IMG/VR virus record: IMGVR_UViG_3300031994_000099
Span: 1,039 to 65,038 of that record
Source: a virus
Lineage: Duplodnaviria; Caudoviricetes
Strand: one strand, 5' to 3'
DNA length: 64,000 bases
Shown here one piece after another: positions 18,805-32,710 of the stretch (positions within the stretch are counted from its first letter, which is position 1; each line of letters opens with the position of its first letter). Below the pieces are notes generated by a model. The model did no database searches, was not told the origin of the DNA, and saw nothing but the letters and a program-made list of their open reading frames with translations. Position numbers and translations under genes: made by a program.

Positions 18805-18878
18805 TTGCCTCAGCGGGACTTGAACCCGCATACTCCACCTTCGGAGGGTGGCACCTTATCCAGTTAGGCCATGAGACA
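18805..18878 (-). tRNA. tRNA-Arg (anticodon CCG)
   Basis: Cloverleaf: TGTCTCA/TGAGGCA acceptor, GCCT/AGGT D-stem, CCACC-CTCCGAA-GGTGG anticodon arm, GCGGG-TTCAAGT-CCCGC T-arm; CCA not encoded. Confidence 0.93.
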
Positions 18879-18977: not shown

Positions 18978-21602
18978 CTAGCCTAGTGCCCCAATCTCCT
19001 TCATTTCAGCCCAGGTCCCACCCACTTCGGAGGCCTCCCCCTCAATTACAAGGGGCACGCAAATCCACGGGAATACCTGGGACACCCGCTGGACTCCGTT
19101 TTTGTAGATAGTCCCACGGACCTTTTCGGACTCGTTTTCAGCCTCCAGGACCACGAGGGCATCGTGAATTTGGCCCACTATTACAGAGGCCAGGCCCAGG
19201 TCCTCAAAGTCTGCGACATTCCAGATTAAGGCCCGGAGCAGGATGTGGAACGCACTGCCCTGAATACAGCGGTTGGTTGCTTCGGTATATCCCATGGGGC
19301 CAAAGCACCTGAACCCGGTATATGACTGAACATATCCATAGTCCTGGTAGCGTTGCCACTCTTTTCGCCGCCATCGGTTATATACAGCAAAACGCTTATT
19401 CCAAAAAATATCGTCTGCCTTTTTAACATGGTTCATGAATTGGTCTAGGGTCCTGATGCCCTTTTTCGCTAGCCAGTCTTTAGCAGTCTGGGGCATATTG
19501 TTCCACATTCCTACTGCGCACGAGCGGTAAGATGCCCCATAAAAACTGCTGAAGACATACCCGGACTTGATTGAACTGCGTTCCTCCTTGGTAATGTCCT
19601 CCGGGCGTTTCATATACATGTCCGCTGCCGTGTCCCGGTGCATATCTGACTCCGGGTTCTGGAGGTAGTGAATCATTTGCGGGTCATGGTGGTAGGAGGC
19701 TGAGACCATCACCTCAAGGCTCTTGTAGTCATATTCTGCGAACCTAAAACCGGGCGGGGCCACGAAAAGGCTGCGGAGCAACTTTTTCATTTCCTTGTCC
19801 CGCTTGGGAATGTTCTGAAAATTCGGGGAGTCTGCTGAACTGCGGTATGTCTTGGGCCCGGCATCGCCATCCCCTCCTGCCCCGGCGGCGAGGTTGAAGA
19901 ACGGCCTGATGAGCCACTGGCCCGTAGGTTCGTCAAAAACTGCCTCCCGGATATAGCCGTCAAGGAATGTATCACGCATCTTGGACCAGTGACGCATATC
20001 TAGTATGGCCTGGCAAAATTCCCCGCCTATCTTGGACAGCGTTGCTTCACGGGCATCCCGGCCATCCTTGTCGGAGTATTTCAAAATGTCGTAAAGCAGG
20101 GTGACCAGCTGCTTGTTAGAGTCCGGGTTGAGGCTCATACCCTTTGCCTTTTCGTAGGCAGCCGCCTCCCTAGAGTCCATCACCCTTTTCCGGGCGGCCT
20201 CATACTTTTCGGTCATCATAGCCTTGAGGCCGTTGACCTTATTCATATCAATCGGGAGTCCGTTTGACTGGACCTTTGCGAGGGCCAACATGCCCTCCAT
20301 AAAAAACTCAAAAGCCCTCATCTGGTCCGGGGACAGCATAGGCTCCTGGCGGTCCCGGAGGTAGATGGTGTAAAGGCTATCCAGGCCGCAGTAGTAGGCT
20401 ATTTCACCCCAGGGGACCCCTACACGGGACTTGAGGAGGTTAAACGCATTGCAGGAGTCAGGATTTTCACCCGGCATAAAACTACTCAGCCAGCGGTCAG
20501 CGGCGGCATCATACCCAAGCACGCCCAGTTCGCAGTAGGTGTGGAACTTTAGGCCCACCTTTTGGTTGTTGTCTATTACATGAGCAGCCAGGCAGGTGTC
20601 CCAGGACCAGTTCGTGGGCCAGGGGGAGCGGGTAGAGCCCAAGCCAGAGCGGAACCGGGACCAACACGCCTCAAAATCAGCCTTGTGGGCAATAAGTCCA
20701 GGGCCATTATACAAGACCCTCTTCCAGGCCTCTATCAGTTCCGGGCAGTCCGGGTCCCACTTAAACCCAATGGCCTTGTATTCCCCTTTAGACCTCCAAG
20801 CAAGGGAGGCCGCCACGATGCGGTGGCCGTCACGATGGGGCTTGAGGCCCGTTGTCTCATAGTCAATAGCAACATCCGGGGCAGATGCTCCGGGAGCGGG
20901 TTCAGCCTCCCTCAAGGCCTCGTCAATTAAGCGGGCCGCCTCACGGGGGTCCGTGGTAGTCTTTACCTGGTCGGGAATTTTCGGGAGGGGGACCCCCACG
21001 AGGCTCATGGCCCTTCGGAGGTGCTGCTTGAAATACATTTCCGGGCAGCCGTCATCCTTCTGCCATGATAAAAAGTCCACCCCATAGGTCGGGCAAATCC
21101 AGCAATTGTAGGTTCGGTCAGGAATACACTTGCCAATAAAATCCGTTGCTTTTATGTTGGTTATACGGCCAGCGAGGCGGTCCCAGATTAGGGCCTGGGT
21201 AGATACCGGGCCAAGACAAATAATGACCTTCGGGGCCATTTCCTTGATGAGGGCATCCAGGCGGGCCTTACAGCAGAGGCTCCGGGCGGTCCCGGCATCC
21301 TTATCCGGGCACGGGCACTGGACGGCATAGCCAAAGGCAGCGGCCTTTTTCCAATCACGGGGCAGCCCACGGGTCCCCTCAGTGTCCCAAAAATGATGAT
21401 ATGCGGCCCCGGTAAAGATTTCAGAACTGGTTTCACGGGCGGCAGGGTAGTCCCCCAGGATAAGCACCCCGGATTTTAGGTTGCCCTTAAAGGCGGCAGT
21501 TTGCCCGGAGCGGTCCAGGCCGCAAGCATCGCACCCGCTCAGTTTAGTCGGGGCCTTGCGTTTTTCGGTGACGGGCATCGGGCCCAAGTTGAAAAAACCC
21601 AT
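18978..21602 (-). CDS. Family A DNA polymerase with N-terminal family-4 UDG-like (Fe-S) domain and 3'-5' exonuclease
   Basis: N-term CDAC...LGDYPA...CPCP...CC...PTY; exonuclease DYETTGL; polymerase motifs A (DYKSLE), B (R...K...F..FYG) and C (QIHDAL). Confidence 0.92.
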   Translation of the reverse strand: MGFFNLGPMPVTEKRKAPTKLSGCDACGLDRSGQTAAFKGNLKSGVLILGDYPAARETSSEIFTGAAYHHFWDTEGTRGLPRDWKKAAAFGYAVQCPCPDKDAGTARSLCCKARLDALIKEMAPKVIICLGPVSTQALIWDRLAGRITNIKATDFIGKCIPDRTYNCWICPTYGVDFLSWQKDDGCPEMYFKQHLRRAMSLVGVPLPKIPDQVKTTTDPREAARLIDEALREAEPAPGASAPDVAIDYETTGLKPHRDGHRIVAASLAWRSKGEYKAIGFKWDPDCPELIEAWKRVLYNGPGLIAHKADFEACWSRFRSGLGSTRSPWPTNWSWDTCLAAHVIDNNQKVGLKFHTYCELGVLGYDAAADRWLSSFMPGENPDSCNAFNLLKSRVGVPWGEIAYYCGLDSLYTIYLRDRQEPMLSPDQMRAFEFFMEGMLALAKVQSNGLPIDMNKVNGLKAMMTEKYEAARKRVMDSREAAAYEKAKGMSLNPDSNKQLVTLLYDILKYSDKDGRDAREATLSKIGGEFCQAILDMRHWSKMRDTFLDGYIREAVFDEPTGQWLIRPFFNLAAGAGGDGDAGPKTYRSSADSPNFQNIPKRDKEMKKLLRSLFVAPPGFRFAEYDYKSLEVMVSASYHHDPQMIHYLQNPESDMHRDTAADMYMKRPEDITKEERSSIKSGYVFSSFYGASYRSCAVGMWNNMPQTAKDWLAKKGIRTLDQFMNHVKKADDIFWNKRFAVYNRWRRKEWQRYQDYGYVQSYTGFRCFGPMGYTEATNRCIQGSAFHILLRALIWNVADFEDLGLASVIVGQIHDALVVLEAENESEKVRGTIYKNGVQRVSQVFPWICVPLVIEGEASEVGGTWAEMKEIGALG

Positions 21603-21622
21603 AGAAAATTCCTTGAAAAATA

Positions 21623-21672
21623 AAAAAAGTCCCCGGCCCAGGGACAATGGCTAGTAAACCCAGGCCGGGAAC
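21623..21672 (-). terminator. Intrinsic terminator after the clamp gene
   Basis: CCCCGGCC/GGCCGGGG stem followed by a T-run. Confidence 0.6.
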
Positions 21673-21688
21673 CCCCTGATGGAAACAA

Positions 21689-22771
21689 CTACTCAATCAC
21701 ATCGGTAGATACCAGCTGGGCAAACCCTTCGGAGGTAAACACCATGGTATCAGTTTCAGAGCCTTCAGCGTGGACCAACTTGAAGTCCATAGCCTTGCGG
21801 CCCGCCTCCATAAGGAACGAGGTGTCAACCCAGACAACCCGGTTCAGGTCCGTTTCCAGCGGGGTGTCCCACGGGACAAGTTCGGAGGCGTCACCAGTGT
21901 CCTTCTTGGCATAGAGTTCCAGGCCATCCTTCTTGAAGGTCAAGCGGACAAGGGAGGCACTGCTGCCGTCAATACCGCTGGCCATAGTAGCCACACGGCC
22001 CGTTGCTTCCAGGAGGTCCTTGGGGAGGCGGCCTGCAAGGATAGCCGGGGCACCCTGGGCCTCAGTGACTGCGGTGTTAAACATCGTGACCGGGAACTGG
22101 GCGCAGTCCTTCAACTTGCAGCTGAAGATGGTCCCGTCAGCATACTTGAGGTGGAGCCACGGGCCGCCCATTGCGTAATCAGTCGGGTCACCCAATTTCA
22201 TGAGGTCATTCACCACCGGGTCATCAATCCAAAGCGGGTCCATGCTGCCCTGGAGGGCACCAACGGAAATGCGGGACTGGTCGGTGGACATCACCTGGGC
22301 GTTCTGACCATCCGGGGAGGCCGCAACGGCAATACCACGGAGCGGGGACGGGTTGCACGAGAGTTTACAGAGTTTGACGGCATCCATAAAGCCACCCGGC
22401 AACTTTTTCCACTCTGCTGCGTCCAGGCCCAGGGTGTTAATGTATTCACGGACCCTCGTGGCGTCAATCATCGTCATGCGGGCGTGGGTGCGACCACCGC
22501 TGAGGTTCACCTCCGGGCCGTTCACCTCAATGCTAATCATCGGGGCGTTAATCTTGGTGACCAACTTGAAGAGGTCGGCGGCCTTGACAGCACCTTCAAG
22601 ACCTTCAGCAGCCAGCGGGGTAGATACCGCAATGGTGTCGTTGTAGGTGTGGAGGTAGCCCGGAGTGAAGAGGAATGCGTCAGCACCCACGATGAGGCTG
22701 GACCCGGTTTCAACGCCGGGCATACACTTTTTCATGGCGTCCTGGAGGGTTGTTTTGGCGAGAGTAATCAT
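21689..22771 (-). CDS. Sliding clamp (DNA Pol III beta-like)
   Basis: 360 aa with three repeated beta/alpha units; adjacent to the polymerase; clamp loader in the same region. Confidence 0.7.
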   Translation of the reverse strand: MITLAKTTLQDAMKKCMPGVETGSSLIVGADAFLFTPGYLHTYNDTIAVSTPLAAEGLEGAVKAADLFKLVTKINAPMISIEVNGPEVNLSGGRTHARMTMIDATRVREYINTLGLDAAEWKKLPGGFMDAVKLCKLSCNPSPLRGIAVAASPDGQNAQVMSTDQSRISVGALQGSMDPLWIDDPVVNDLMKLGDPTDYAMGGPWLHLKYADGTIFSCKLKDCAQFPVTMFNTAVTEAQGAPAILAGRLPKDLLEATGRVATMASGIDGSSASLVRLTFKKDGLELYAKKDTGDASELVPWDTPLETDLNRVVWVDTSFLMEAGRKAMDFKLVHAEGSETDTMVFTSEGFAQLVSTDVIE

Positions 22772-22774
22772 TGA

Positions 22775-23596
22775 TTATTCCTTTGTAGTTGGGACATTGA
22801 GTTTAAATGCCGGGCACAACTTGTCCTTGAATTGTTCCAGGCCGGGGCAGTCTAGGCAGCCCCCATCGTTAATAAATTTGAATGCAGACTGGGTTATGTA
22901 GTCCCAGGTAAACATCCGACAGAGTTCAGAGAGTCCGGGGAGGCCCGGCGACACCAGGCAGTAGCGGTAATTTATCCAGCATCCTATGCCGGAGTCAATG
23001 ACACTCACCCCCATGGGCTTGCCCTTCACTAAAAGGGTCATGCGGGAGGCGAGGCCCTGGGGGAGTTCCCCCAATACTGCTTCCACCAATCGGTCCGGGT
23101 CAAATACCCCGTCCCCCTTTTTCCCGGCCCAGTCTGCTAGGTAGTCCTGCGTGGCCTTTTCGTCACGGGACTTTTCCCACGGGACCAGCTGGCAGTTTTC
23201 CAGGCGGGCATTAAGGTTTCGGAGGGCAAGCGACAAGGCCTTGCGGCGGCCACGGAACTGGCCACCCTGCCACCCGTCTAGGATGCGGCTGGGCCTATAT
23301 ACATATTGCTTGTCCCAGAGGCTAGGAACACCACTTTCAGTGGCAAACCCGGCCTCAAATTTTTCATCGGCAAGGGAATAGTCATCCAGGCAGATACCCG
23401 GCAGGACAAGTTGCCCATCCTCTGGGTCCCGGACCTCTATTGACTCCCTGCCGTAAGAATTGCGGCGGCGTGACACTAGATACCCGCATGCCCGGAGCCA
23501 GTAGGGGGACATCAGAAAGTTCGGAGCCTCCCCCAGATACTTATGGCAGTGGGCAGCTGCGGCCTTTAGGTAGGTATCAGCATCAAGTCTTTTCAT
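22775..23596 (-). CDS. DUF2156 / LPG-synthase C-terminal-like (Fem/GNAT fold) aminoacyl-tRNA-dependent transferase
   Basis: QYVYRPSRILDGWQGGQFRGRRKAL resembles DYIY...L.G.KF...RN; FINDGGCLDCPGLEQFKDKLCP resembles YIN...DLG..GLR.AK....P. Confidence 0.6.
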   Translation of the reverse strand: MKRLDADTYLKAAAAHCHKYLGEAPNFLMSPYWLRACGYLVSRRRNSYGRESIEVRDPEDGQLVLPGICLDDYSLADEKFEAGFATESGVPSLWDKQYVYRPSRILDGWQGGQFRGRRKALSLALRNLNARLENCQLVPWEKSRDEKATQDYLADWAGKKGDGVFDPDRLVEAVLGELPQGLASRMTLLVKGKPMGVSVIDSGIGCWINYRYCLVSPGLPGLSELCRMFTWDYITQSAFKFINDGGCLDCPGLEQFKDKLCPAFKLNVPTTKE

Positions 23597-23761
23597 CTAG
23601 CCATTCCCCGGCTGAACAAGGCCCAGGCCAAAGGCATTAACCTTCGGGGCCTTTTTAGTGGTCGGGGCCTTTTTAGCAGTAGCCTGGAGGGACCCGCCCG
23701 CCTTGATGCGGTCAATGAGGGCCTTGGACACATTCCCGGTCTTGCGGCTTTTTCCACCCAT
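23597..23761 (-). CDS. 54-aa Lys-rich peptide (not in ORF track)
   Basis: Manual translation MGGKSRKTGNVSKALIDRIKAGGSLQATAKKAPTTKKAPKVNAFGLGLVQPGNG; RBS AAGGAGG; TAG abuts the next ATG. Confidence 0.75.
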   Translation of the reverse strand: MGGKSRKTGNVSKALIDRIKAGGSLQATAKKAPTTKKAPKVNAFGLGLVQPGNG

Positions 23762-23762
23762 G

Positions 23763-24545
23763 TTAGTTACCTCCTTCAGGAACCTGAATCACATCATCCG
23801 GGTCCTCTGCCGTTTCCTGCGTCACCCCGGAGGCGGCATCAGTAATGTAGCCCAGTTCATCGTAAACACAAGCAGCAATCACGCCCACCATGACCCCTTC
23901 GGAGTCCTTAAAGGCCAGCCAGTTCTTACCCGGCTGCGGATAGAGCGTGAGGGTGTTCGTGAATGAGAACAGAGCCTTGAGGTCAGCCGTGCGGAGGCCA
24001 ATGGGCTTGAACCCGGCGGGGAGGGCGTTCAACTTGATGAGGCCCTTGGACTCTGCCGCCCCAATAATCTCAATGCGGCCACCCGTGTAGATGTTCTTTT
24101 GCATCAGCATCAGGGACCCGTTCTTGCTGTGGAGTTCCACATGGCTGAGGTCATCACTGAGGAGGGTCAGGATGTCCTTATTGAGGACAACCGGGGTGGA
24201 CTGGTCAAAGTCCTTAAACTTGGAATAGATGTCACGGACCTCGTTGAAGGTAGTCTTGGGGCAGCCGCAAGTCTTTTTCTGCTTATAGGCCCCGTGGGTG
24301 GTAATAAAGCAGACTTGGCCGCCCTCCACCTCAATGTTCGGGGACTCGTAATCATTGGCGAAAAAGTCCAGGGCCGCCGGGAACACCATATCAGGAGTAA
24401 AACTGATGATGATAGTGTTATCCATGTTGGCCACATAGAGTTCGGAGCCGTTGCCATGAATATGGGATTTCATACGGCCATTCTGTGCGAGGGCCACGGC
24501 CTGGGCCATCATCAGTTCGGTTCTTTTGGTGATTTGAATTTTCAT
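23763..24545 (-). CDS. Hypothetical protein, possibly a second clamp-fold protein (260 aa)
   Basis: ORF with strong RBS; size and alternating helix/strand pattern suggest a PCNA/gp45-like fold (weak inference). Confidence 0.55.
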   Translation of the reverse strand: MKIQITKRTELMMAQAVALAQNGRMKSHIHGNGSELYVANMDNTIIISFTPDMVFPAALDFFANDYESPNIEVEGGQVCFITTHGAYKQKKTCGCPKTTFNEVRDIYSKFKDFDQSTPVVLNKDILTLLSDDLSHVELHSKNGSLMLMQKNIYTGGRIEIIGAAESKGLIKLNALPAGFKPIGLRTADLKALFSFTNTLTLYPQPGKNWLAFKDSEGVMVGVIAACVYDELGYITDAASGVTQETAEDPDDVIQVPEGGN

Positions 24546-24574
24546 AGTTGTTTTCCTTTTCAGTTCTTTTGCTT

Positions 24575-24592
24575 TTATACCTTCGGGGCCGG
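24575..24592 (-). promoter_or_regulatory. CCGG-N7-GGTATAA promoter
   Basis: Exact motif; its TAA doubles as the stop codon of the upstream rSAM gene. Confidence 0.7.
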
Positions 24593-26020
24593 GAGGCCTC
24601 CAAACACATCACGGAACAGCTGGACCCTGAAATCATCCTTGCCCTGGTAGTTCCACACGAGGCCATCCTCATTGTTTCCAATCGCAATCACACCCTGGCC
24701 CCAGTCAATCGGCCAGGCCTTGTCGCCTTCAGCGTTCCAGAGGGTCTTGACTTCTTTTCGGAGGTTCGTGGACAGCCAGCCACCTTTAGAGAGCACCCAG
24801 TTTTCAAAGTCCCTCCAGGTAGTCGGGGCAGTCCCCCGGCTCTGAATAAAGCGGATAGCCATGACACCGCAGCCCCAGTTGAACCCGGTGAAAAAGTCGC
24901 CCACCGAACAACAGACCCAGTCATCATTTTCCGGGGCATTGCCCTGGTCAAAGGTGGAGCACTTGAGGCCGTTCTGCCTAAAGTATCGCATAAACTTGCC
25001 CAACATAAGGCTGGAGAGGCCCTGGGAGTCTGAGGAGGTCAAGAACATTCTGTCCCAGTCCAGGCCCATCTTCTGAAAGTTCGTTGCGAGGCCACGGGAG
25101 TTCGCTGAGTAGGAGTAGGAGTCAAAGGTGAGGTGGGTCACTCCGGCCTCCTTAATCCAGCCAATGTATTCATCCACCTTGTCCTTGGAGTCATTGATAA
25201 ACATCATCCAGGGCTCAATGCGGGCTACAACCCGGACCCCGGCCTGGGTCAGGCGGCGGCCAGCCTCAAGGCGGGCGTGGAACCCAGGGGCACCCGGCTC
25301 CATTCTCTTCAAAAATTCCTCGTCAGAACTAATCAGCGTGAAGTGGATGGCAGCCTTGCCCTTGTTTTCCGACAAGGCCTTGAGGTAGCGGTCATCACTG
25401 CCGGGAATAGGGCTTTTGGTGTTAATCATCGTGGGGTAGCCCCAGTCACGGAGGTGTTCAAGCACCGCCAGGCTAATGCCGTGCTTGCGTTCGGCATTGT
25501 GAAAGTCCTCAAAGCGGATGCCAAAGCGGATAGGGATGCCCAAACGGACAGCGTTCAGGACCTCATTTTCACCGCTCACCTTTTCGCCCTTATGTCCCAG
25601 GAGTTTGTCCAATTCCTTGTTTACCACAGCCGGGTCGCAGTGACGCAACTTGAGGTTTTTCCCGTTGTCAAAAAACGAGGTATAGAGGGAACTGCGGAAA
25701 TAATCAGCAAAGCAATAGCGGCAGCCCATCGGGCAACGCAGCCCATCCCAGGTGTCCAGGTTAAGGGGCATCGGGCAGGACTGGGCCCGGAGGCTGACCT
25801 CAATGAAGGACTGAAGGCCCTCCGTGGACAAGATGCGTTCCAACTTGTCCATTTCCCCGGTCGCCAGGTTAAACTGATGATAGTTAGACTTGCGGCCCTT
25901 CTGCTTCTGCTTGTAGAGGTCGCCAGGGGAATTATTGAGCGTGGTCTGCCGGGGCACGGCGGTGGCGATATACCTGCGTGCCTCCCAGTAGTCCATAGAG
26001 TTGATTTCATCAAGGGTCAT
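24575..26020 (-). CDS. Radical SAM enzyme B (SPL-like family, 481 aa)
   Basis: CPMGCRYC (CX3CX2C), RFGIRFED, INTKS, RLEA...VVARIEP. Confidence 0.85.
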   Translation of the reverse strand: MTLDEINSMDYWEARRYIATAVPRQTTLNNSPGDLYKQKQKGRKSNYHQFNLATGEMDKLERILSTEGLQSFIEVSLRAQSCPMPLNLDTWDGLRCPMGCRYCFADYFRSSLYTSFFDNGKNLKLRHCDPAVVNKELDKLLGHKGEKVSGENEVLNAVRLGIPIRFGIRFEDFHNAERKHGISLAVLEHLRDWGYPTMINTKSPIPGSDDRYLKALSENKGKAAIHFTLISSDEEFLKRMEPGAPGFHARLEAGRRLTQAGVRVVARIEPWMMFINDSKDKVDEYIGWIKEAGVTHLTFDSYSYSANSRGLATNFQKMGLDWDRMFLTSSDSQGLSSLMLGKFMRYFRQNGLKCSTFDQGNAPENDDWVCCSVGDFFTGFNWGCGVMAIRFIQSRGTAPTTWRDFENWVLSKGGWLSTNLRKEVKTLWNAEGDKAWPIDWGQGVIAIGNNEDGLVWNYQGKDDFRVQLFRDVFGGLPAPKV

Positions 26021-27111
26021 AGCAGTTTTCCTCTTTTGAGTTTGGGGCGGTTTGCCCCGTTGAGTTCCTTTTCTAGGTCTGTTATACTAAACACTTCGGG
26101 CCTTTGCCCGGATAGGATGGCACGGGCCTCATCTAGGTCCCCCACCCCATCCCAGGTCTGGGCAATAATGTCGTCAATGTCCCGGACCCCGGCCAGCCAT
26201 AGCCTCTTCCATTCCATCACTGTAAAGGTGGAGGGGTTGGGCACCGACATGCCGCAGCAAGTGTTTGCTGCCTGGATGTATTCCCGGCTGGTTAAAAAGT
26301 CGGGGCACCCCAGGGCCACCTCTTCTGCCTTGGCAATCTCAATAAGTTCCCGGTGGATAGGTCCCCAGGTCCCATCCTGGGTCCCCTTCCATATTGCCTC
26401 AATATCTACCCCGGCGGCGTTCATCGCCTTCAGGTTGTAGTCGTTGATATGCATAAAATATGTGTTGTAGGTGTGGACCCCCACGGACTTAACTGCCTGG
26501 AGGGCGGCCCGGAACTGGGCAGTGGTATGAAGGCCGGGGACAAAGGGCTCACCATTAAACGCAACCGGGACCCTAGCCCGCATAAGTTCAGCGGCGGCAT
26601 CCAATCGGACCTTCGGGTGGTCTGTGAGTTTACCCTCTAGGTGTTCCCAGTCCCATTCTAGGCCGGGGGACATCTCAATCATTACAGTGGCCTTGCCCCT
26701 AGAGTCCTTGAGCATATCCAGGTCCCGGCCTACCAATAAAGACGGGAATTTTGTCTGGACTACATAGGACCAGTCAAGGGTATTAAACACTGAGAGTATC
26801 TGGCGGGACACCCCTGTGACCTTTTCAATAGGCTGGTAGGGGTCTGCCTTATTGCCAAAGCGGATTGTCTTTTTTGCCTTGATAGCCCTCCCCAGGGGAG
26901 TCTTGGGGGCCGGGTTCTTTAGGCCGTTTTCAAGTTCTTTTCGGATTGTTTCGGGGTTTGCTACCTTCTGGGCCATTCCCCAGGTGCGGTTCATCCTCCG
27001 TAAGTAGCACATAGGACACCCCACGCACTGCCAATAGGCATCTACCTGGAGTGATAGGGGGCACCAGTAGTGGTCCCCCCGCAAAGATACTGGTGACTTG
27101 AATTCATCCAT
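26017..27111 (-). CDS. Radical SAM enzyme A (SPL-like family, 364 aa)
   Basis: CVGCPMC (CX2CX2C variant), IRFGNKADPYQPIE, VQTK, RLDA...NGEPFVPG. Confidence 0.85.
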   Translation of the reverse strand: MDEFKSPVSLRGDHYWCPLSLQVDAYWQCVGCPMCYLRRMNRTWGMAQKVANPETIRKELENGLKNPAPKTPLGRAIKAKKTIRFGNKADPYQPIEKVTGVSRQILSVFNTLDWSYVVQTKFPSLLVGRDLDMLKDSRGKATVMIEMSPGLEWDWEHLEGKLTDHPKVRLDAAAELMRARVPVAFNGEPFVPGLHTTAQFRAALQAVKSVGVHTYNTYFMHINDYNLKAMNAAGVDIEAIWKGTQDGTWGPIHRELIEIAKAEEVALGCPDFLTSREYIQAANTCCGMSVPNPSTFTVMEWKRLWLAGVRDIDDIIAQTWDGVGDLDEARAILSGQRPEVFSITDLEKELNGANRPKLKRGKLL

Positions 27112-27118
27112 ATTCAGA

Positions 27119-27136
27119 TTATACCGGGGTTGCCGG
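27119..27136 (-). promoter_or_regulatory. CCGG-N7-GGTATAA promoter (rSAM pair)
   Basis: Exact motif 8 bp upstream of the ATG. Confidence 0.7.
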
Positions 27137-27138
27137 GG

Positions 27139-27969
27139 CTATTCCCCTATGTTCCACATGACTATTTCACCCACGAGGCTGTCCCGGTTCTCCATAATCC
27201 ACTTCCAGGCCTTGCGGTCATAGTAGGGGTTACAAGGGAACGACACCGGGGTGTCTACCCGGTCCGCATAGGCATAGCCCTCGTCAATTAGTTCTACACT
27301 AGAGTTGATAAAGTCCTGCGGGACCTCCTTGCTGGCCATATACCGCAGGACCTGCTCGTGGCTCCGGGAATAGCCCAAGTGGACAATTAGCCTAGTCTGC
27401 GGGCGGTTAAGCCGGGACAGCCCAAGGGCCACCCCGGATGCCAATGTAGCACTTGAGGCACTCACTACTACATTGACGGGCCCAATAATGTATTCTGGCC
27501 ATGTTTCTGTCAGTTCCTGGGCGGTTGCTTCCACGCTGGCGGTAAACTTTAGGCCGTTGGGGGCCATAGCCCCTCCGTGCTCCACGCAATCCTTCTTTGC
27601 GATGTTCCAGAGAACCGCAGACATGAGGTTGCCCCGGAGCGGGACCAGCGTGGCCCCAAGTTCCTGGGCGTGGGCCTGTGACTCCCGGAGGTCCCCCGGC
27701 TTGTCATCCTTGAATACTGGGTAATAGACCCGGACCGGGAACCCATAATCAGGGGCAAGGTAGGACACCCCCCACCCGGCCTTGGAGTGACGGGTATCAA
27801 GGACCCCAACGCAGGTCGGGGGAATGAGTTGGGCCCGGAGTCCCTTCAGCCAGGATGTTAGGCCCCGGACCTTGCTGAAAGAGGGTCCGGGCGGCGGGCA
27901 GGATAGGTCCTCACGCTTGACCCAGATGCCCAGGTGCCGCTGCCAGGGGGTATGCGTTGAAATTTTCAT
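27139..27969 (-). CDS. Fold-type II PLP-dependent enzyme (ACC deaminase / D-cysteine desulfhydrase-like)
   Basis: IWVKREDL...SKVRG (Schiff-base Lys), VVSASSATLASG phosphate loop, NPYYDRKAW, MWNIG. Confidence 0.8.
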   Translation of the reverse strand: MKISTHTPWQRHLGIWVKREDLSCPPPGPSFSKVRGLTSWLKGLRAQLIPPTCVGVLDTRHSKAGWGVSYLAPDYGFPVRVYYPVFKDDKPGDLRESQAHAQELGATLVPLRGNLMSAVLWNIAKKDCVEHGGAMAPNGLKFTASVEATAQELTETWPEYIIGPVNVVVSASSATLASGVALGLSRLNRPQTRLIVHLGYSRSHEQVLRYMASKEVPQDFINSSVELIDEGYAYADRVDTPVSFPCNPYYDRKAWKWIMENRDSLVGEIVMWNIGE

Positions 27970-29414
27970 CGGCTCCCCCTCCTGCCCCGTCTGGGCGGCG
28001 GGTTGTCCTCATATTCCTCATCGTCCATATTCACTGCCACCTCGTGGAGCATCCGGGCCTCTAGGAACGGGCGGCCAATAGCCAGGCAGGAGGTGCAGAC
28101 AACCTGCTCCATGACGGCGGCCCCCTCACGCTGGGTCTTACAACTCACTCTGTAAATTCCCCGCTCCTTTTCCTCTTCAGTCTGGTTAAGGACTATCAAC
28201 TTGGTCACATGGCCTAACTTGCGGATGTCTTCGGATAGGTCGGCATCACCTGCGTCACGGGTCCCGCCCACTGTCTGGCGGCCCGTATGCGATGCCGTAA
28301 TGATAGCACCCTTGCGTTCAGATGCCAGGCCCCTCAACGCCATCCAGGTCGCATTAAGGCGGTGGCGTTCATCTAGGTTGTTCCTGCCGTGGTCCATATT
28401 ATCTGCAGCGTCAAGCACGATAACATCCGGGACAAACTTGTCATACACCTCCATAGACTTTAGTTCAGCCCGGAGTCCGGCAACGCTCAGGGAGTTCGTT
28501 GGCCAGGTCCTTATTTCCAGGCGGCCTCCCCGGTTATACATGGCGAGGCGGTCCTGGACAGCCTTAATGCCTGCCGGGGTGCTATCTACACGGGTGGTCT
28601 GAAATTCCCTATCCTCAAGGGCCCACTGGTCTGGCCCGGCCTCTACAAATTGAGGGCACGGGGCCTTTTCCCCATATCGGGAACAACCTGAAAGATACTG
28701 CCAAAAACGGCGTATCACCTGCGGCTCCGACATTTCCAGCGAACAGAAAAGGACCTGCTTGCCTTGAAGATAGGCGGTGATGGCAGTAGCCATAAGCCAC
28801 CATGACTTGCCCCTTTTCGGAGGGGCAGCAAAGGCAACAAAGTCTTCACGGATAAACGGCCCAATGACCCGGCCCAGGACCTTCGGGAACTTAAACAACT
28901 CCTCATCCTCGTCATTAAAGGCCCTGAACACCGCATTGGAGTCCGTGGCGATATTTACGGCATGGGCGTTCCTAACAGTGGGCTGGACAAACTCAGCAAT
29001 AAGCCGCTCCGCATGCGAGGTATCATTGGATTTCACGGCCCGCTCTAGGTCCTCAGTGAGCATCTTCACGGCCCGCTGCTTGAAATAGCCCATAGCCATA
29101 TCCACGGCAAGGGCGTTGTTGGTCGGGGTCCACTCGTCACTCATGGTGGACAAAAAGTCATAGACCAGTTCGGCATCTGCCTGCTGGAGTTCCCCCGCCC
29201 TCTGTCGGTAAATATCACTGATGGCTTTTCCGGGGGCCTCCCCACGGCGGTCAAAATACTCCCAGACCCAGGAGGCCACTGCCCGGCTGGGCCCGGACTC
29301 AAACAATTTAGGGTCCCCGGCGGTCCGGCAACGGGCCAGTAGTTCGGTGGACATAATCAGGTTAGACAACACCCGGCGTTCAATAGATAGGTCAATTGGT
29401 TCTTTGGTAAGCAT
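27966..29414 (-). CDS. dnaB: DnaB-like replicative helicase
   Basis: Walker A APPKRGKS, SLEM, IVLDAAD, TASH, LSEDIRKLGHV. Confidence 0.85.
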   Translation of the reverse strand: MLTKEPIDLSIERRVLSNLIMSTELLARCRTAGDPKLFESGPSRAVASWVWEYFDRRGEAPGKAISDIYRQRAGELQQADAELVYDFLSTMSDEWTPTNNALAVDMAMGYFKQRAVKMLTEDLERAVKSNDTSHAERLIAEFVQPTVRNAHAVNIATDSNAVFRAFNDEDEELFKFPKVLGRVIGPFIREDFVAFAAPPKRGKSWWLMATAITAYLQGKQVLFCSLEMSEPQVIRRFWQYLSGCSRYGEKAPCPQFVEAGPDQWALEDREFQTTRVDSTPAGIKAVQDRLAMYNRGGRLEIRTWPTNSLSVAGLRAELKSMEVYDKFVPDVIVLDAADNMDHGRNNLDERHRLNATWMALRGLASERKGAIITASHTGRQTVGGTRDAGDADLSEDIRKLGHVTKLIVLNQTEEEKERGIYRVSCKTQREGAAVMEQVVCTSCLAIGRPFLEARMLHEVAVNMDDEEYEDNPPPRRGRRGSR

Positions 29415-29442: not shown

Positions 29443-31353
29443 TCACCTGCCCCGGCGGGCTAGGATTTCAGTGAGTAGGTCCATATCAACCGGGGCCTTG
29501 CCGTCCATTACCCCGTCCAACATTTTAGCACGCTGGTCCAGGACCTCTATTGCGTCCATATCAATCGTGCCCTTGGCCACGAGGTAGTAGGAATTGACCG
29601 GGACTCCCTGGCCACCTCTATGAAGGCGGTCCTCAGCCTGGCGGTGGTCATTAGGGGTATGGCTAAATTCAAGGAACACGCAGTGGCTGCATACCTTCTG
29701 GAACCCGTCAATGCCCACGCCCCCGGCCTGGATATTAGCGACCATTACCCGGCACTTTTCATCATTGACAAATTTCTGAACGGCCTTGTCCCGGTCCCCA
29801 GTAGACATTCCCCCGTATAACTTGGCGGCGTGATATTCCTTCATCTCAGCCGTCACGAGGTCCACCACATCCCGGTGCCAGGCGAAAATAAGCAACTTGT
29901 TGTCGGTGTCCTCCAAAAAATTCCTTATCCACTCCATGGCGGGTTTTTCCTTCACGGAGTAGGCTGACCGCAGGAGGCCCGCAATGCGTTCCCTCAGTTC
30001 AGCCTTTGTAGCATTGTCCTGGCTAAAGGCCTCATGTTCAGCGGCCTGATACTCTGCCAGTGCCTTCTGGTCGGGTTCTAGGGGTATCACATCCACTGTC
30101 TTGGGCGGGAGGTCCTTCATGACCTGGGCCTTGGTTCGCCTCACCATTACATCTACCAGGAGGCGGTGGAGTTCCTGGATGTGGGAGGCACCATTGTAGG
30201 TCATCCCAAACCCATTAGACTTCGGGCCGCAATAGCGGTTGAGGTAGTGGTAATAGTTGGGGAATTTATCAGGCGAGAGGATATTGAGCAGCGGCCAGAA
30301 CTGGGCGGGCTTGGACCGGGCGGGCGTTCCGCTCATCCCAATCAGTCCTGGGATGACCTTGGACAATGCCCTAAAGGCCTTGGACCTCTTGGAGGTCGGG
30401 TTGCCTATGGCCTGGCACTCATCGCCAATAAGCAGCTGGAACCCAAACTTGGCCAGCGGCCCATCAGTAATAAAGGCCCCGTTGCCAGCAATATGCCCGG
30501 CCCAGTCTGCTAGAATATCCCAGTTGATAATGTAACTCACGCCCGGCTCCATCGGAAATGGCTTGCGGCCAGACAGCACCCCAATCCGCTTAAACATAGG
30601 GCTGACTGCGTGGACTTTTCCCAGCCAGTCCTTAAAGGCACGGGCCCACTGCAGTTTAGTCGGGGCGTTCACTACAATCAACGCCGGGAATGCCCCAGAG
30701 TAGGCAAGCCACGCAAGGGCCTGCACTGTTTTTCCCGTCCCCATATCATCGCCAAGTGCGGCCCGGCCCTTGCGGAGGGACATGAAACGGACAAAATCAA
30801 CCTGATAGGGGTAAAGGCCTGGGATGAGCGGGCGGCATTCCTCTAGCCTCACGGCCTTAATCTTTTTTGCCTGCTCTTCAGTCGGGTCCGGGGGCGGCGG
30901 CAGAGGGGCTGCCGGGGCCGTTTCAACTTGCTCCGGGGGAATAGTCCACCCGGATGCTATCAGCCACGCTACATAGGCGGGCTTGTCCGGGACATCCCAG
31001 AGTTTAGTTGCCGGGTTAAACGAGCGGGCCGGGAGGGTCCTGACCCTCTCAAGCACTACCCTCCACTGGTCCTTGTCCCTGCTAGCCCACGAGAGGATGA
31101 GGCGGCCCTTGTCGTCACCCTGGCCCCTTGCACAGGTGTAGGTCACGCCCTTTACCGGGCCAAGCGGGGCTGGGAGTCCCGTGGGGCTTAACAACTTACT
31201 AGACTGGATGGCAGCCTGAACCCTTTTGTCCGGCATCGGGACCGGGGCCAGGGGCTGGTAGCGGGGGCCACTAGTCAATGGGGTTTTATATAAATTAACT
31301 TTTCCGGATGGGCCGTTGGTGGGTTCGCTTGGCGGTGGCGGATAATTACTCAC
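29443..31353 (-). CDS. SNF2-family helicase with HARP-like N-terminus
   Basis: LYPYQ, GDDMGTGKT, DECQ, SGTP, RRTK, QAEDRLHRGGQ. Confidence 0.9.
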   Translation of the reverse strand: MSNYPPPPSEPTNGPSGKVNLYKTPLTSGPRYQPLAPVPMPDKRVQAAIQSSKLLSPTGLPAPLGPVKGVTYTCARGQGDDKGRLILSWASRDKDQWRVVLERVRTLPARSFNPATKLWDVPDKPAYVAWLIASGWTIPPEQVETAPAAPLPPPPDPTEEQAKKIKAVRLEECRPLIPGLYPYQVDFVRFMSLRKGRAALGDDMGTGKTVQALAWLAYSGAFPALIVVNAPTKLQWARAFKDWLGKVHAVSPMFKRIGVLSGRKPFPMEPGVSYIINWDILADWAGHIAGNGAFITDGPLAKFGFQLLIGDECQAIGNPTSKRSKAFRALSKVIPGLIGMSGTPARSKPAQFWPLLNILSPDKFPNYYHYLNRYCGPKSNGFGMTYNGASHIQELHRLLVDVMVRRTKAQVMKDLPPKTVDVIPLEPDQKALAEYQAAEHEAFSQDNATKAELRERIAGLLRSAYSVKEKPAMEWIRNFLEDTDNKLLIFAWHRDVVDLVTAEMKEYHAAKLYGGMSTGDRDKAVQKFVNDEKCRVMVANIQAGGVGIDGFQKVCSHCVFLEFSHTPNDHRQAEDRLHRGGQGVPVNSYYLVAKGTIDMDAIEVLDQRAKMLDGVMDGKAPVDMDLLTEILARRGR

Positions 31354-32315
31354 TTGAAAAACCTCCTGGGAACAGATACGCCCCGCTCACGGGACAGCCA
31401 CCCCATAAAGTCCACCCAGGCCGGGGAGGTCGGGCAGATAAATCCAAAGGGGACAAAGCCCCCTGCCTTTGCGTAATCTAGGATGCGCAAGAAAAAGGCT
31501 GACCCGGAACCGAACACCAGCCGGGCCTCCGGGCAAATTCCTACTAGGTCCGCACCCCTAGCAAGCCACCACTGGTAGGCCTCACGGGCACCCTTCCAGA
31601 ACATTAGTTCCTGGGCCTGGCCCCAGCGGGCTGGCTGCTTGCCCATAGCCTCGCAAAGAATATCGGAGGCGACATTGCAGACCTTATGGGGCACCTGCTC
31701 CTTTAGTGCGGCTATCTGTTCACGGGGAGGCAACGCCCGGTCCTGCCTCCATAGGATGGCTACAAATGGGCTGTATGCCCCAGAGTTAGGGGGAGTGGTC
31801 ACAATGAAGTCCACCAGGGACACCTTCTGACGCCTCCCGGCCTTCATAGGTGGGTAGGGGTAGCCCTCCGGGACAAGGGCCTCAAGGCGGCCAAGGGCCG
31901 TGTCTAGGCAGTCAATAAGTTGGTCCAGGTCTGACGGGACCCTGGGCATGATAAATTCCCCGGAGGGGCTGTTGGACTTGACCCAGGCGGCTCCCCACTG
32001 GTAGGCTGCCTGGAATGTCCCCAGGAGCAGCTGCGAGAGAACCAGCTGGAGGCGGCTGCCTACCTTTGACAGGTTGTCCGGGTCCAGTTTTGTCTGGGAT
32101 ATAAGGGCCTTGTGTCGGGACATCAGGTCAGAGAGTCCCCGGAACTGGTCTGCCGTAAACTTGAAGGCTTCGTGCCTCCCAGCGGGAATTATCCTGCCCT
32201 TAATGCGGACTGGGTGGACCTTCGGCAATACCTGGACCTTTACCACAAAGGCCTCCGGGCGGTCCATCCCAGCCGGGACAAATGCCTCATTAGGGTCTAG
32301 CACTTCGGCAGTCAC
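31350..32315 (-). CDS. Hypothetical protein (321 aa)
   Basis: ORF track; coupled to its neighbours. Confidence 0.65.
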   Translation of the reverse strand: MTAEVLDPNEAFVPAGMDRPEAFVVKVQVLPKVHPVRIKGRIIPAGRHEAFKFTADQFRGLSDLMSRHKALISQTKLDPDNLSKVGSRLQLVLSQLLLGTFQAAYQWGAAWVKSNSPSGEFIMPRVPSDLDQLIDCLDTALGRLEALVPEGYPYPPMKAGRRQKVSLVDFIVTTPPNSGAYSPFVAILWRQDRALPPREQIAALKEQVPHKVCNVASDILCEAMGKQPARWGQAQELMFWKGAREAYQWWLARGADLVGICPEARLVFGSGSAFFLRILDYAKAGGFVPFGFICPTSPAWVDFMGWLSRERGVSVPRRFFK

Positions 32316-32710
32316 TTGGCCCCTGCCTTGTTCGGGTGCTTACTTATCCAGCGGGCAATAAAGGCCCGGCACCCTTCTATGGTGTCCGGGTAGGCCTCTA
32401 AAAATTCTGCCCTCATCTGCGATGCCGTTACATTCTCAACCCGGACCAGGCGGGCCTTCATGGGCTCTAGGTTCTTGCCCCTATACTCAGGCCTAAACCA
32501 TTGGACACTGGGGGAATAGCCCCGGCCCGTCATCTCAAGCAGGACCTGGGAATGATACCACACCAGGGTAGGCTGGGGGAGGTTCCACAGCCACTGGAGG
32601 CGGCGGCCCTTGCCCCATGACTTGCCCCTAAAGCGGCAGCAGTCCCTATGGAGGGCACACAGCATCCGGGGAGGGAGGGTTGAAAGTAGTTCTGGGTGAA
32701 TTATACGCAT
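32312..32710 (-). CDS. Pyrimidine-dimer DNA glycosylase / endonuclease V-like protein
   Basis: MRIIHPELLSTLPPRMLCALHRDCCRFRGKSWGK matches the MRLWH..L...LP...L...HRECC..RG..WG pattern. Confidence 0.7.
   Translation of the reverse strand: MRIIHPELLSTLPPRMLCALHRDCCRFRGKSWGKGRRLQWLWNLPQPTLVWYHSQVLLEMTGRGYSPSVQWFRPEYRGKNLEPMKARLVRVENVTASQMRAEFLEAYPDTIEGCRAFIARWISKHPNKAGAK

Follow-up and report, generated by a model that had tools for sequence, protein, structure and literature searches.

A candidate DNA base hypermodification module with two radical-SAM enzymes and a second clamp fold in the replication operon of a sheep-rumen phage

In the IMG/VR virus record IMGVR_UViG_3300031994_000099, a replication operon on the minus strand holds six closely packed genes between a DnaB-type helicase and a beta-type clamp followed by PolA. 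These encode, in order, a pyridoxal phosphate (PLP) fold-II enzyme, two radical S-adenosylmethionine enzymes (rSAM A and rSAM B), a 260-aa clamp-fold protein, a 54-aa peptide and a 273-aa DUF2156-like protein, referred to below as the transferase. The stretch analysed (the window; 64,000 nucleotides) is the 65,038-bp record minus 1,038 bases, and CheckV rates the genome 100% complete. A first-pass annotation, made from the letters of the window, had proposed that the six genes form a new DNA-hypermodification pathway. Having followed up that proposal by computational means, we judge the odds to be slightly in favor of a DNA base hypermodification module that is accessory, is coupled to replication and bypasses 5-hydroxymethyluracil (hmU); we place much less confidence in any particular chemistry.

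Conservation of the module and the search for known starting enzymes

Each of the six genes was found on the minus strand where it had first been placed, and the packing is as tight as had been claimed: the DnaB and PLP genes overlap by 4 nt, as do the genes for rSAM A and rSAM B, and the remaining gaps measure 0-29 nt. A co-occurrence survey of IMG/VR shows that this arrangement is not peculiar to one phage. Among 80 loci recovered with rSAM B, those with flanking sequence all carry the clamp-fold protein, peptide, transferase and clamp, and the genes follow the conserved order DnaB, rSAM A (or a second rSAM-B-like paralog), rSAM B, clamp-fold protein, peptide, transferase, clamp. The reciprocal search through the transferase gave the same picture, with rSAM B carried by 43 of the 43 loci that have at least 4.5 kb of upstream sequence (many contigs being common to both locus sets). 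About 100 IMG/VR loci share this gene order, including some whose rSAM B identity is as low as 46%; two rSAMs occur in 64 of the 65 loci with a complete DnaB-to-rSAM B interval; and the module adjoins either PolA or a DnaE-type polymerase. In total the module was found in 117 IMG/VR loci, from habitats that include rumen, groundwater, digesters and sediments, and purifying selection acts on all of its genes (dN/dS 0.05-0.29). The genes grouped together by the first-pass annotation thus co-occur as one conserved module, of which searches of a literature library found no published description.

Natural deletion variants bear on whether the module belongs to the core replication machinery. In a sister lineage, L005/L006, whose DnaB and PolA are ~80% and 84% identical to those of the window, ~175 bp of unrelated sequence (L005:8822-9056) stands in place of window positions 27985-24620, an interval made up of exactly the PLP, rSAM A and rSAM B genes. 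A further variant, L007 (L007:8722-9028), in addition has its clamp-fold gene reduced to 23 codons and has lost the peptide. The promoter-like segment that precedes the clamp-fold gene (window 24619-24546) is kept in both L005 and L007. Because these variants have lost its genes, the module is accessory rather than a part of core replication, a status that, by analogy, is the usual one for anti-restriction modifications.

All known amino-acid-type thymidine hypermodifications start from 5-hydroxymethyldeoxyuridine (5-hmdU) and a DNA kinase, and it was on this kinase that published metagenome surveys were anchored (PMC8989533). Such a survey would therefore have missed a module without a kinase. 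The 5-NedU pathway of Pseudomonas phage M6 (Yuavirus) comprises a dUMP hydroxymethylase (gp58), a 5-hmdU DNA kinase (gp54), an amino acid:DNA transferase (gp51), an rSAM glycinyl-thymine isomerase (gp53) and a PLP decarboxylase (gp52) (PMC8989533). The first-pass annotation had seen no hydroxymethylase, hmU kinase or aGPT-Pplase in the window, and had pointed out that a standard hmU/aGPT pathway elsewhere in the genome would speak against its proposal. When the complete genome was searched in six frames with profiles at E<=10, there was no match to the dUMP hydroxymethylase (a thymidylate synthase homolog, PF00303), to the 5-hmdU DNA kinase (HMUDK, PF18748) or its helical partner (PF18723), to the amino acid:DNA transferase (ADDT/aGPT-Pplase2, PF18724) or to a Tet/JBP dioxygenase. 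The same searches found the kinase and the transferase in both positive controls, M6 and Stenotrophomonas phage Bhz59. The absence first noticed in the window thus holds for the whole genome, and no standard pathway was found there. It also holds more widely, in that neither HMUDK nor ADDT was found in any of 20 other module-bearing records (nine of them >=90% complete), and the thymidylate synthase family was found in three, one of which has a canonical ThyA (E 4.7e-126).

These searches bear most directly on a cryptic M6-type pathway, whose starting enzymes would be too divergent to detect or would be supplied by the host. Such a pathway would explain why the PLP and rSAM homologs described below correspond to two late M6 enzymes, and distant relatives can indeed escape profiles. 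However, the controls were found easily by the searches that came up empty in the complete genome, HMUDK and ADDT are missing from all 20 of the other records and thymidylate synthase from 17, and, apart from the genes described here, the module is accompanied by no conserved gene of fitting size that lacks an assignment. We therefore regard a hidden M6-type route as very improbable.

Relatives of the module's enzymes

Having found none of the known starting enzymes, we turn to the enzymes that are present. Over 270 aa, its whole length, the PLP enzyme shares 41% identity with M6 gp52 (E 3e-60), and its K33 aligns with gp52 K36, the proposed PLP-binding (Schiff-base) lysine; a sequence search of the PDB with the PLP enzyme returned nothing meaningful. 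In M6, gp52 is the decarboxylase that converts C-alpha-glycinyl-thymine in DNA to 5-(2-aminoethyl)uracil (PMC8989533). The PLP step envisaged in the first-pass annotation thus gains a homolog that is a proven DNA-acting decarboxylase, but loses its place in the core, since the gene is present in 36 of the 65 loci with a complete DnaB-to-rSAM B interval and behaves as an optional finishing enzyme. Loci without it have other genes in this slot: a methyltransferase-fold family in 22 loci, an aldo-keto reductase in 11, a DAO-type FAD oxidoreductase in 3, Amidoligase_2 in 2 and a SAM methyltransferase in 2. DUF362 occurs alongside the paralogous rSAM. PLP, flavin oxidoreductase and amidoligase families have been reported around known thymidine hypermodification clusters. 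The contents of the PLP slot vary between loci in the way expected of a fixed core with swappable finishing enzymes.

The two rSAMs are distant paralogs by BLAST (23-25% identity; E 1e-8 to 1e-12); an hhalign comparison of the pair was discarded because the rSAM B alignment contained rSAM A rows. Alignment of profiles with hhalign matched rSAM A to M6 gp53 at 97.0% probability and rSAM B at 97.6%, the rSAM B alignment possibly including some rSAM A rows, and tblastn of gp53 against rSAM A gave an E of 3e-7. Judged from these alignments, both enzymes are homologous to gp53, which is a statement about homology and not about shared activity. To our knowledge, gp53 is the sole rSAM known to install a DNA modification. 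Inspection of conserved cysteines extends the comparison. In rSAM B, the most conserved gene of the module (dN/dS 0.05), C96-X3-C100-X2-C103 is invariant in 17 of 17 sequences, and C82 and C370/C371 are also invariant; the rSAM A family shares CX3CX2C together with conserved C17, C269, C285 and C286, and rSAM A itself is under purifying selection (dN/dS 0.12 vs L008). The additional cysteines probably reflect a second (auxiliary) Fe-S cluster in each rSAM, and a second cluster has been reported for gp53 (PMC8989533). Homologs of rSAM B form at least 480 clusters, at 46-98% identity, and a tblastn search with rSAM B of 50,697 isolate phage records gave no match at 1e-5, so that the module has no cultured representative there. 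Some rSAM B homologs contain intein/Hint domains or are divided into two open reading frames (ORFs) by an insert (P0100 and P0124; L100, L108, L119, L121, L122, L127-L129 and L144).

Compared with the M6 pathway as a whole, the module is alike in having a PLP homolog and gp53-homologous rSAMs with extra conserved cysteines, in adjoining replication genes and in varying its finishing enzymes among relatives. It is unlike that pathway in lacking the hydroxymethylase, the kinase, the kinase helical domain and the amino acid:DNA transferase; in having two rSAMs rather than one; in adding a clamp-fold protein, a 54-aa peptide and a DUF2156-like enzyme; and in treating PLP as optional. At the level of sequence, then, the module shares two late enzyme types with the M6 pathway and departs from it in three defining features.

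Both rSAMs had been called spore photoproduct lyase (SPL)-like. Their only library matches are weak ones to the PA0069/Rv2578c 'DNA repair photolyase' clade (COG1533), with a score of 59 bits vs a family cut-off of 360 bits. Against the SPL model itself (TIGR04070), rSAM B scored 11.6 bits (E 0.093) vs a cut-off of 400, and rSAM A gave no match. The earlier description therefore survives as weak family-level similarity combined with homology to gp53, and does not extend to a match at the level of TIGR04070. What the module shares with SPL, PA0069 and Rv2578c is weak profile similarity to a DNA-acting rSAM clade with thymine-methyl radical chemistry; what sets it apart, besides scores far under the cut-offs, is that these are phage proteins with extra N- and C-terminal regions.

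The same clade assignment invites a different reading, in which the locus is a replisome accessory or DNA-repair set: the rSAMs would repair thymine lesions in the manner of SPL, the clamp-fold protein, the peptide and the GNAT-type protein would be lineage-specific replisome subunits, and no new base would be made. Such a set would fit the family-level annotation as DNA repair photolyase, the constant position within the replication operon, the persistence of the clamp-fold protein, the peptide and the transferase without rSAMs in L005, and the presence of a pyrimidine-dimer glycosylase gene in the same genome. Yet the hosts live in the rumen and in other dark anoxic habitats, where UV photoproducts are not expected; swappable enzymes of biosynthetic type are placed between the rSAMs; and the stepwise natural deletions show that replication does not depend on any of these genes. 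Taken together, we consider a repair set quite unlikely.

Evidence on the 273-aa transferase comes mainly from its family. In the ESM Atlas, the nearest named clusters carry PF09924 (feature score 0.97). A profile built from 53 family members matched a single entry in the PDB, the DUF2156 protein 2hqy (E 1.6e-4), and 27 of the 53 members match PF09924 at E<=1 (best 1.3e-6). A profile of close homologs, by comparison, retrieved only ARNO from the PDB, a chance-level match that we rejected. In a weak structural model based on 11 close homologs, which we treated as no more than a lead, Sbb17, ATE1, MprF and FemX ranked first, with Z scores of ~8. The family is discrete, with 614 cluster representatives, the best 150 of which are all 228-307 aa long. 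These results support a relationship of the 273-aa family to DUF2156/LPG_synthase_C, within the GNAT-type aminoacyl-tRNA transferase superfamily, and the first-pass label of DUF2156-like can be kept for the family. Resemblance to the MprF C-terminal domain, FemX and stand-alone DUF2156 proteins lies in the 2hqy profile match, in the half of the members that match PF09924 and in the tRNA-dependent transferases that top the fold search. The phage proteins differ in being soluble and short (~260 aa), in having no flippase domain and in forming a discrete phage family.

The idea that an aminoacyl-tRNA-dependent enzyme could modify DNA, put forward in the first-pass annotation, has a precedent in Mom of phage Mu. 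This GNAT enzyme takes glycine from Gly-tRNA and attaches it to N6 of adenine in double-stranded DNA (PMC13219725). Like Mom, the transferase would be a phage GNAT-superfamily enzyme of the tRNA-using kind, a comparison made at the level of the superfamily. Unlike Mom, which is solitary and late and whose rearrangement is spontaneous, it probably falls in the two-domain DUF2156/Fem-like branch, and two rSAMs, a clamp-fold protein and a peptide accompany it.

Use of tRNA could also mean that RNA is the target, with the module modifying or consuming tRNA (or acting on primer RNA) rather than drawing on tRNA as a donor. The DUF2156 superfamily binds tRNA, and many rSAM enzymes modify tRNA. An RNA target is nonetheless the least probable of the alternatives that we weighed, as a clamp fold points to duplex DNA, both M6 homologs (gp52 and gp53) have DNA as their substrate, and beyond the window's clade the module comes with no linked phage tRNA.

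A second clamp fold, a short peptide and a possible mechanism

The 260-aa protein encoded downstream of rSAM B had been described as clamp-like, and its predicted structure confirms this description. An AlphaFold2 model computed from 50 sequences reached a pLDDT of 86 and shows a two-domain sliding clamp. Aligned with VIA-align, the model gave its best structural match to T4 gp45 (Z 14.4), followed by PCNA and 9-1-1 (Z 13-14); all 38 full clamp or processivity-factor chains scored above Z 8, as against Z ~4 or less for unrelated folds. Foldseek likewise retrieved 9-1-1 and PCNA (E ~1e-8, probability 1.0). The predicted fold thus identifies the protein as a second sliding-clamp-fold protein, in addition to the beta-type clamp that comes after the transferase in all loci with flanking sequence. 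A search of PDB sequences with the clamp-fold profile returned nothing meaningful, and hhalign of the family against the phage's own beta-type clamp gave a probability of only 72%.

Coupling of a DNA-modifying enzyme to a sliding clamp is known from DNMT1, which binds PCNA through a PIP (PCNA-interacting protein) box. What the phage module would have in common with DNMT1-PCNA is the idea of post-replicative modification coupled to the clamp. It would differ in that the phage is predicted to supply a second clamp-fold protein reserved for this use, perhaps together with an adaptor in the form of a separate peptide.

The 54-aa peptide is found in every module locus with flanking sequence. Alignments of ~60 sequences reveal an invariant N-terminus (MGGKSRK.G..S..L), then a Lys-rich linker that varies in sequence and, at the C-terminus, a short hydrophobic motif (GL, LF or LL) often trailed by acidic residues; the gene has a dN/dS of 0.13. 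An ESM Atlas search with the peptide retrieved nothing. This architecture leads us to suppose that the peptide could be an adaptor with a clamp-binding tail. A complex prediction of the clamp-fold protein with the peptide scored 0.01 vs a mark of 0.32 and provides no evidence either way.

The peptide is also at the center of the main rival explanation, in which it is the substrate rather than an adaptor. In this RiPP-like (peptide made on the ribosome and modified after translation) or carrier scheme, which the first-pass annotation had named as its alternative, the DUF2156-like enzyme would aminoacylate the N-terminus or a lysine, the rSAMs and the PLP or other tailoring enzymes would modify the peptide, and the product would be a modified peptide or a peptide-scaffolded small molecule. 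Enzymes of the rSAM type commonly tailor RiPPs; the invariant N-terminal 15-20 residues followed by a variable remainder resemble a leader and core; the peptide accompanies every module locus; and the top fold matches of the transferase include Sbb17, ATE1 and FemX, which aminoacylate peptides or proteins. Weighing on the other side, the variable stretch is a Lys-rich linker of low complexity in which no residue that could be modified is conserved, the rSAMs fall in the gp53/COG1533 DNA-acting clade, the closest characterized relative of the PLP enzyme acts on DNA, and neither a clamp fold nor a position between helicase and clamp plays a part in a peptide pathway. We thus consider a peptide product unlikely, albeit the strongest of the rival explanations.

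How might a DNA hypermodification module of this composition work? The DUF2156-like enzyme would draw an amino acid from a charged tRNA, as Mu Mom does for adenine. The two gp53-like rSAMs would make or rearrange a bond between the amino-acid group and a base in duplex DNA, most likely thymine, via a radical at the C5-methyl group as handled by SPL and proposed for M6 gp53. Where present, the PLP enzyme would remove the carboxylate, as gp52 does in M6; in other phages, a methyltransferase-fold protein, an aldo-keto reductase, an FAD oxidoreductase or an amidoligase would finish the group differently. The PCNA/gp45-like protein could serve as a DNA-bound platform for these enzymes behind the fork, and the peptide could be the adaptor, its invariant N-terminus binding an enzyme and its C-terminal L/F motif a clamp. 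What the analysis shows are the gene identities, the folds, the conservation and co-occurrence of the genes, the lack of the known starting enzymes and the dispensability of the module; that DNA is the substrate, which base is targeted, which amino acid is used, in what order the steps occur and what the peptide does are inferred.

Several observations weigh against hypermodification of DNA by this module. Residues 29-35 of rSAM A form a non-canonical CX2CX2C; this motif is real, but it results from a one-residue deletion confined to the window's closest relatives, whereas L014 (with an 83% identical rSAM B) and the rest of the rSAM A family keep CX3CX2C. PDB sequence searches with rSAM A and with an rSAM B profile returned nothing meaningful, and detected no similarity of either rSAM to solved SPL structures. 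The window's own 273-aa protein has no Pfam match, its weak model reached a pLDDT of 51, and its Z scores were tied with those of plain GNATs. L005/L006 keep the clamp-fold protein, the peptide and the transferase under purifying selection (dN/dS 0.09-0.21) without PLP or rSAMs; because the three persist in this way, they may have a function of their own. This is the chief reason for caution about the single linear pathway first drawn for the locus, which may instead be two cooperating units. The contigs were assembled normally from Illumina metagenomes, and any modification therefore does not block standard sequencing. Finally, it is by homology that DNA, rather than peptide or RNA, is taken to be the substrate.

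A more specific version of the proposal can be imagined, in which an rSAM enzyme abstracts hydrogen from ordinary thymine or another canonical base in duplex DNA and joins the base by a C-C bond to a tRNA-derived amino acid held on the invariant N-terminal Gly-Gly of the peptide, the peptide rides the second clamp behind the fork, and swappable finishing enzymes diversify the product. We think it improbable. If true, it would be the first radical C-H functionalization of DNA bases for modification and the first peptide-carrier, clamp-delivered DNA modification. Even the general form of the hypermodification proposal, if true, would provide a second, radical-based entry into base hypermodification, extend tRNA-dependent DNA modification beyond Mom, give a first example of a second clamp, encoded by a phage, that serves something besides the polymerase, and offer new enzymes for site-free DNA functionalization. 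The natural deletion variants constitute ready-made controls.

Genomic setting of the module

Gut metagenomes of sheep and cattle, produced in 13 studies, contain near-identical DNA, and the source of the window is a sheep-rumen phage. A sheep-gut metatranscriptome holds short pieces identical to the operon, for which DNA carry-over is possible. No joints were seen in the four sequencing runs examined. The features of the locus are collected in Table 1.

Table 1. Features of the replication operon and of other regions of the window. Positions are those of the window.
Feature	Position	Strand	Remarks
SNF2 helicase	29443-31353	-	First gene of the replication operon as listed
DnaB-type helicase	27966-29414	-	phrog_19 at 8e-44; upstream boundary of the module
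PLP fold-II enzyme	27139-27969	-	PF00291 at 2.7e-12; phrog_7093 at 1e-53
Promoter-like CCGG-N7-GGTATAA	27119..27136	-	Directly upstream of rSAM A
rSAM A, 364 aa	26017-27111	-	phrog_13321 at 2e-15; NCBIfam PA0069 family at 4e-16; no Pfam match
rSAM B, 481 aa	24575-26020	-	PF04055; Rv2578c/PA0069 families
Promoter-like CCGG-N7-GGTATAA	24575..24592	-	Directly upstream of the clamp-fold gene; shares positions with the stop codon of rSAM B
Clamp-fold protein, 260 aa, two domains	23763-24545	-	PCNA/gp45 type by predicted fold
54-aa peptide	23597-23761	-	MGGKSRK.G..S..L N-terminus, Lys-rich linker, C-terminal hydrophobic motif
DUF2156-like protein, 273 aa	22775-23596	-	Stand-alone distant relative of DUF2156/LPG_synthase_C
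Beta-type clamp, three-domain length	21689-22771	-	phrog_947 at 2e-17; presumably the replicative clamp
PolA with N-terminal UDG-like domain	18978-21647	-	PF00476 at 1.4e-39; PF03167 at 2.4e-4; downstream neighbor
tRNA-Arg(CCG)	18805-18878	-	Just downstream of PolA
Pyrimidine-dimer glycosylase, T4 endonuclease-V type	32312-32710	-	PF03013
CCGG-N7-GGTATAA, all copies	6374, 14885, 16843, 18409, 18954, 24575, 27119, 32739 (-); 32801 (+); 56028 (-)

The two internal phage promoters reported in the first-pass annotation are both copies of a recurrent motif, CCGG-N7-GGTATAA, that occurs 10 times in the window vs 0.29 times expected. Most copies are intergenic, and eight lie on the minus strand in the early and replication arm. 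Their recurrence and placement make a phage promoter the likely role of this motif, so that what stands of the earlier report is the motif itself, with promoter activity as its probable meaning.

The tRNA-Arg(CCG) gene was considered as a dedicated amino-acid donor and rejected. It is confined to the window's clade, where it is conserved even in the rSAM-less L005; other loci with the module lack it, and it therefore has no link to the module.

Uracil-DNA glycosylase (UDG)-like domains recur next to the module. Of 66 module loci, 62 have a UDG-like ORF downstream of the clamp, and the domain is fused to the polymerase in module phages of both the PolA type and the DnaE type (L010:14075-17653). 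The occurrence of a T4 endonuclease-V-type glycosylase in a rumen phage might be explained along the same lines, as an apurinic/apyrimidinic lyase for the polymerase-fused UDG rather than as a UV-repair enzyme.

Two further proteins are encoded at the edges of the module in some loci. In about ten loci, a third ORF of ~500 aa, weakly similar to rSAM B (score ~100), separates the transferase gene from the clamp gene (for example, L072:8682-10208, L075:11700-13265 and L087:12166-13734). Between DnaB and rSAM A, 58 loci encode a ~217-aa protein with an acidic/basic low-complexity center (for example, L009:7634-8119), which is absent from the window's clade.

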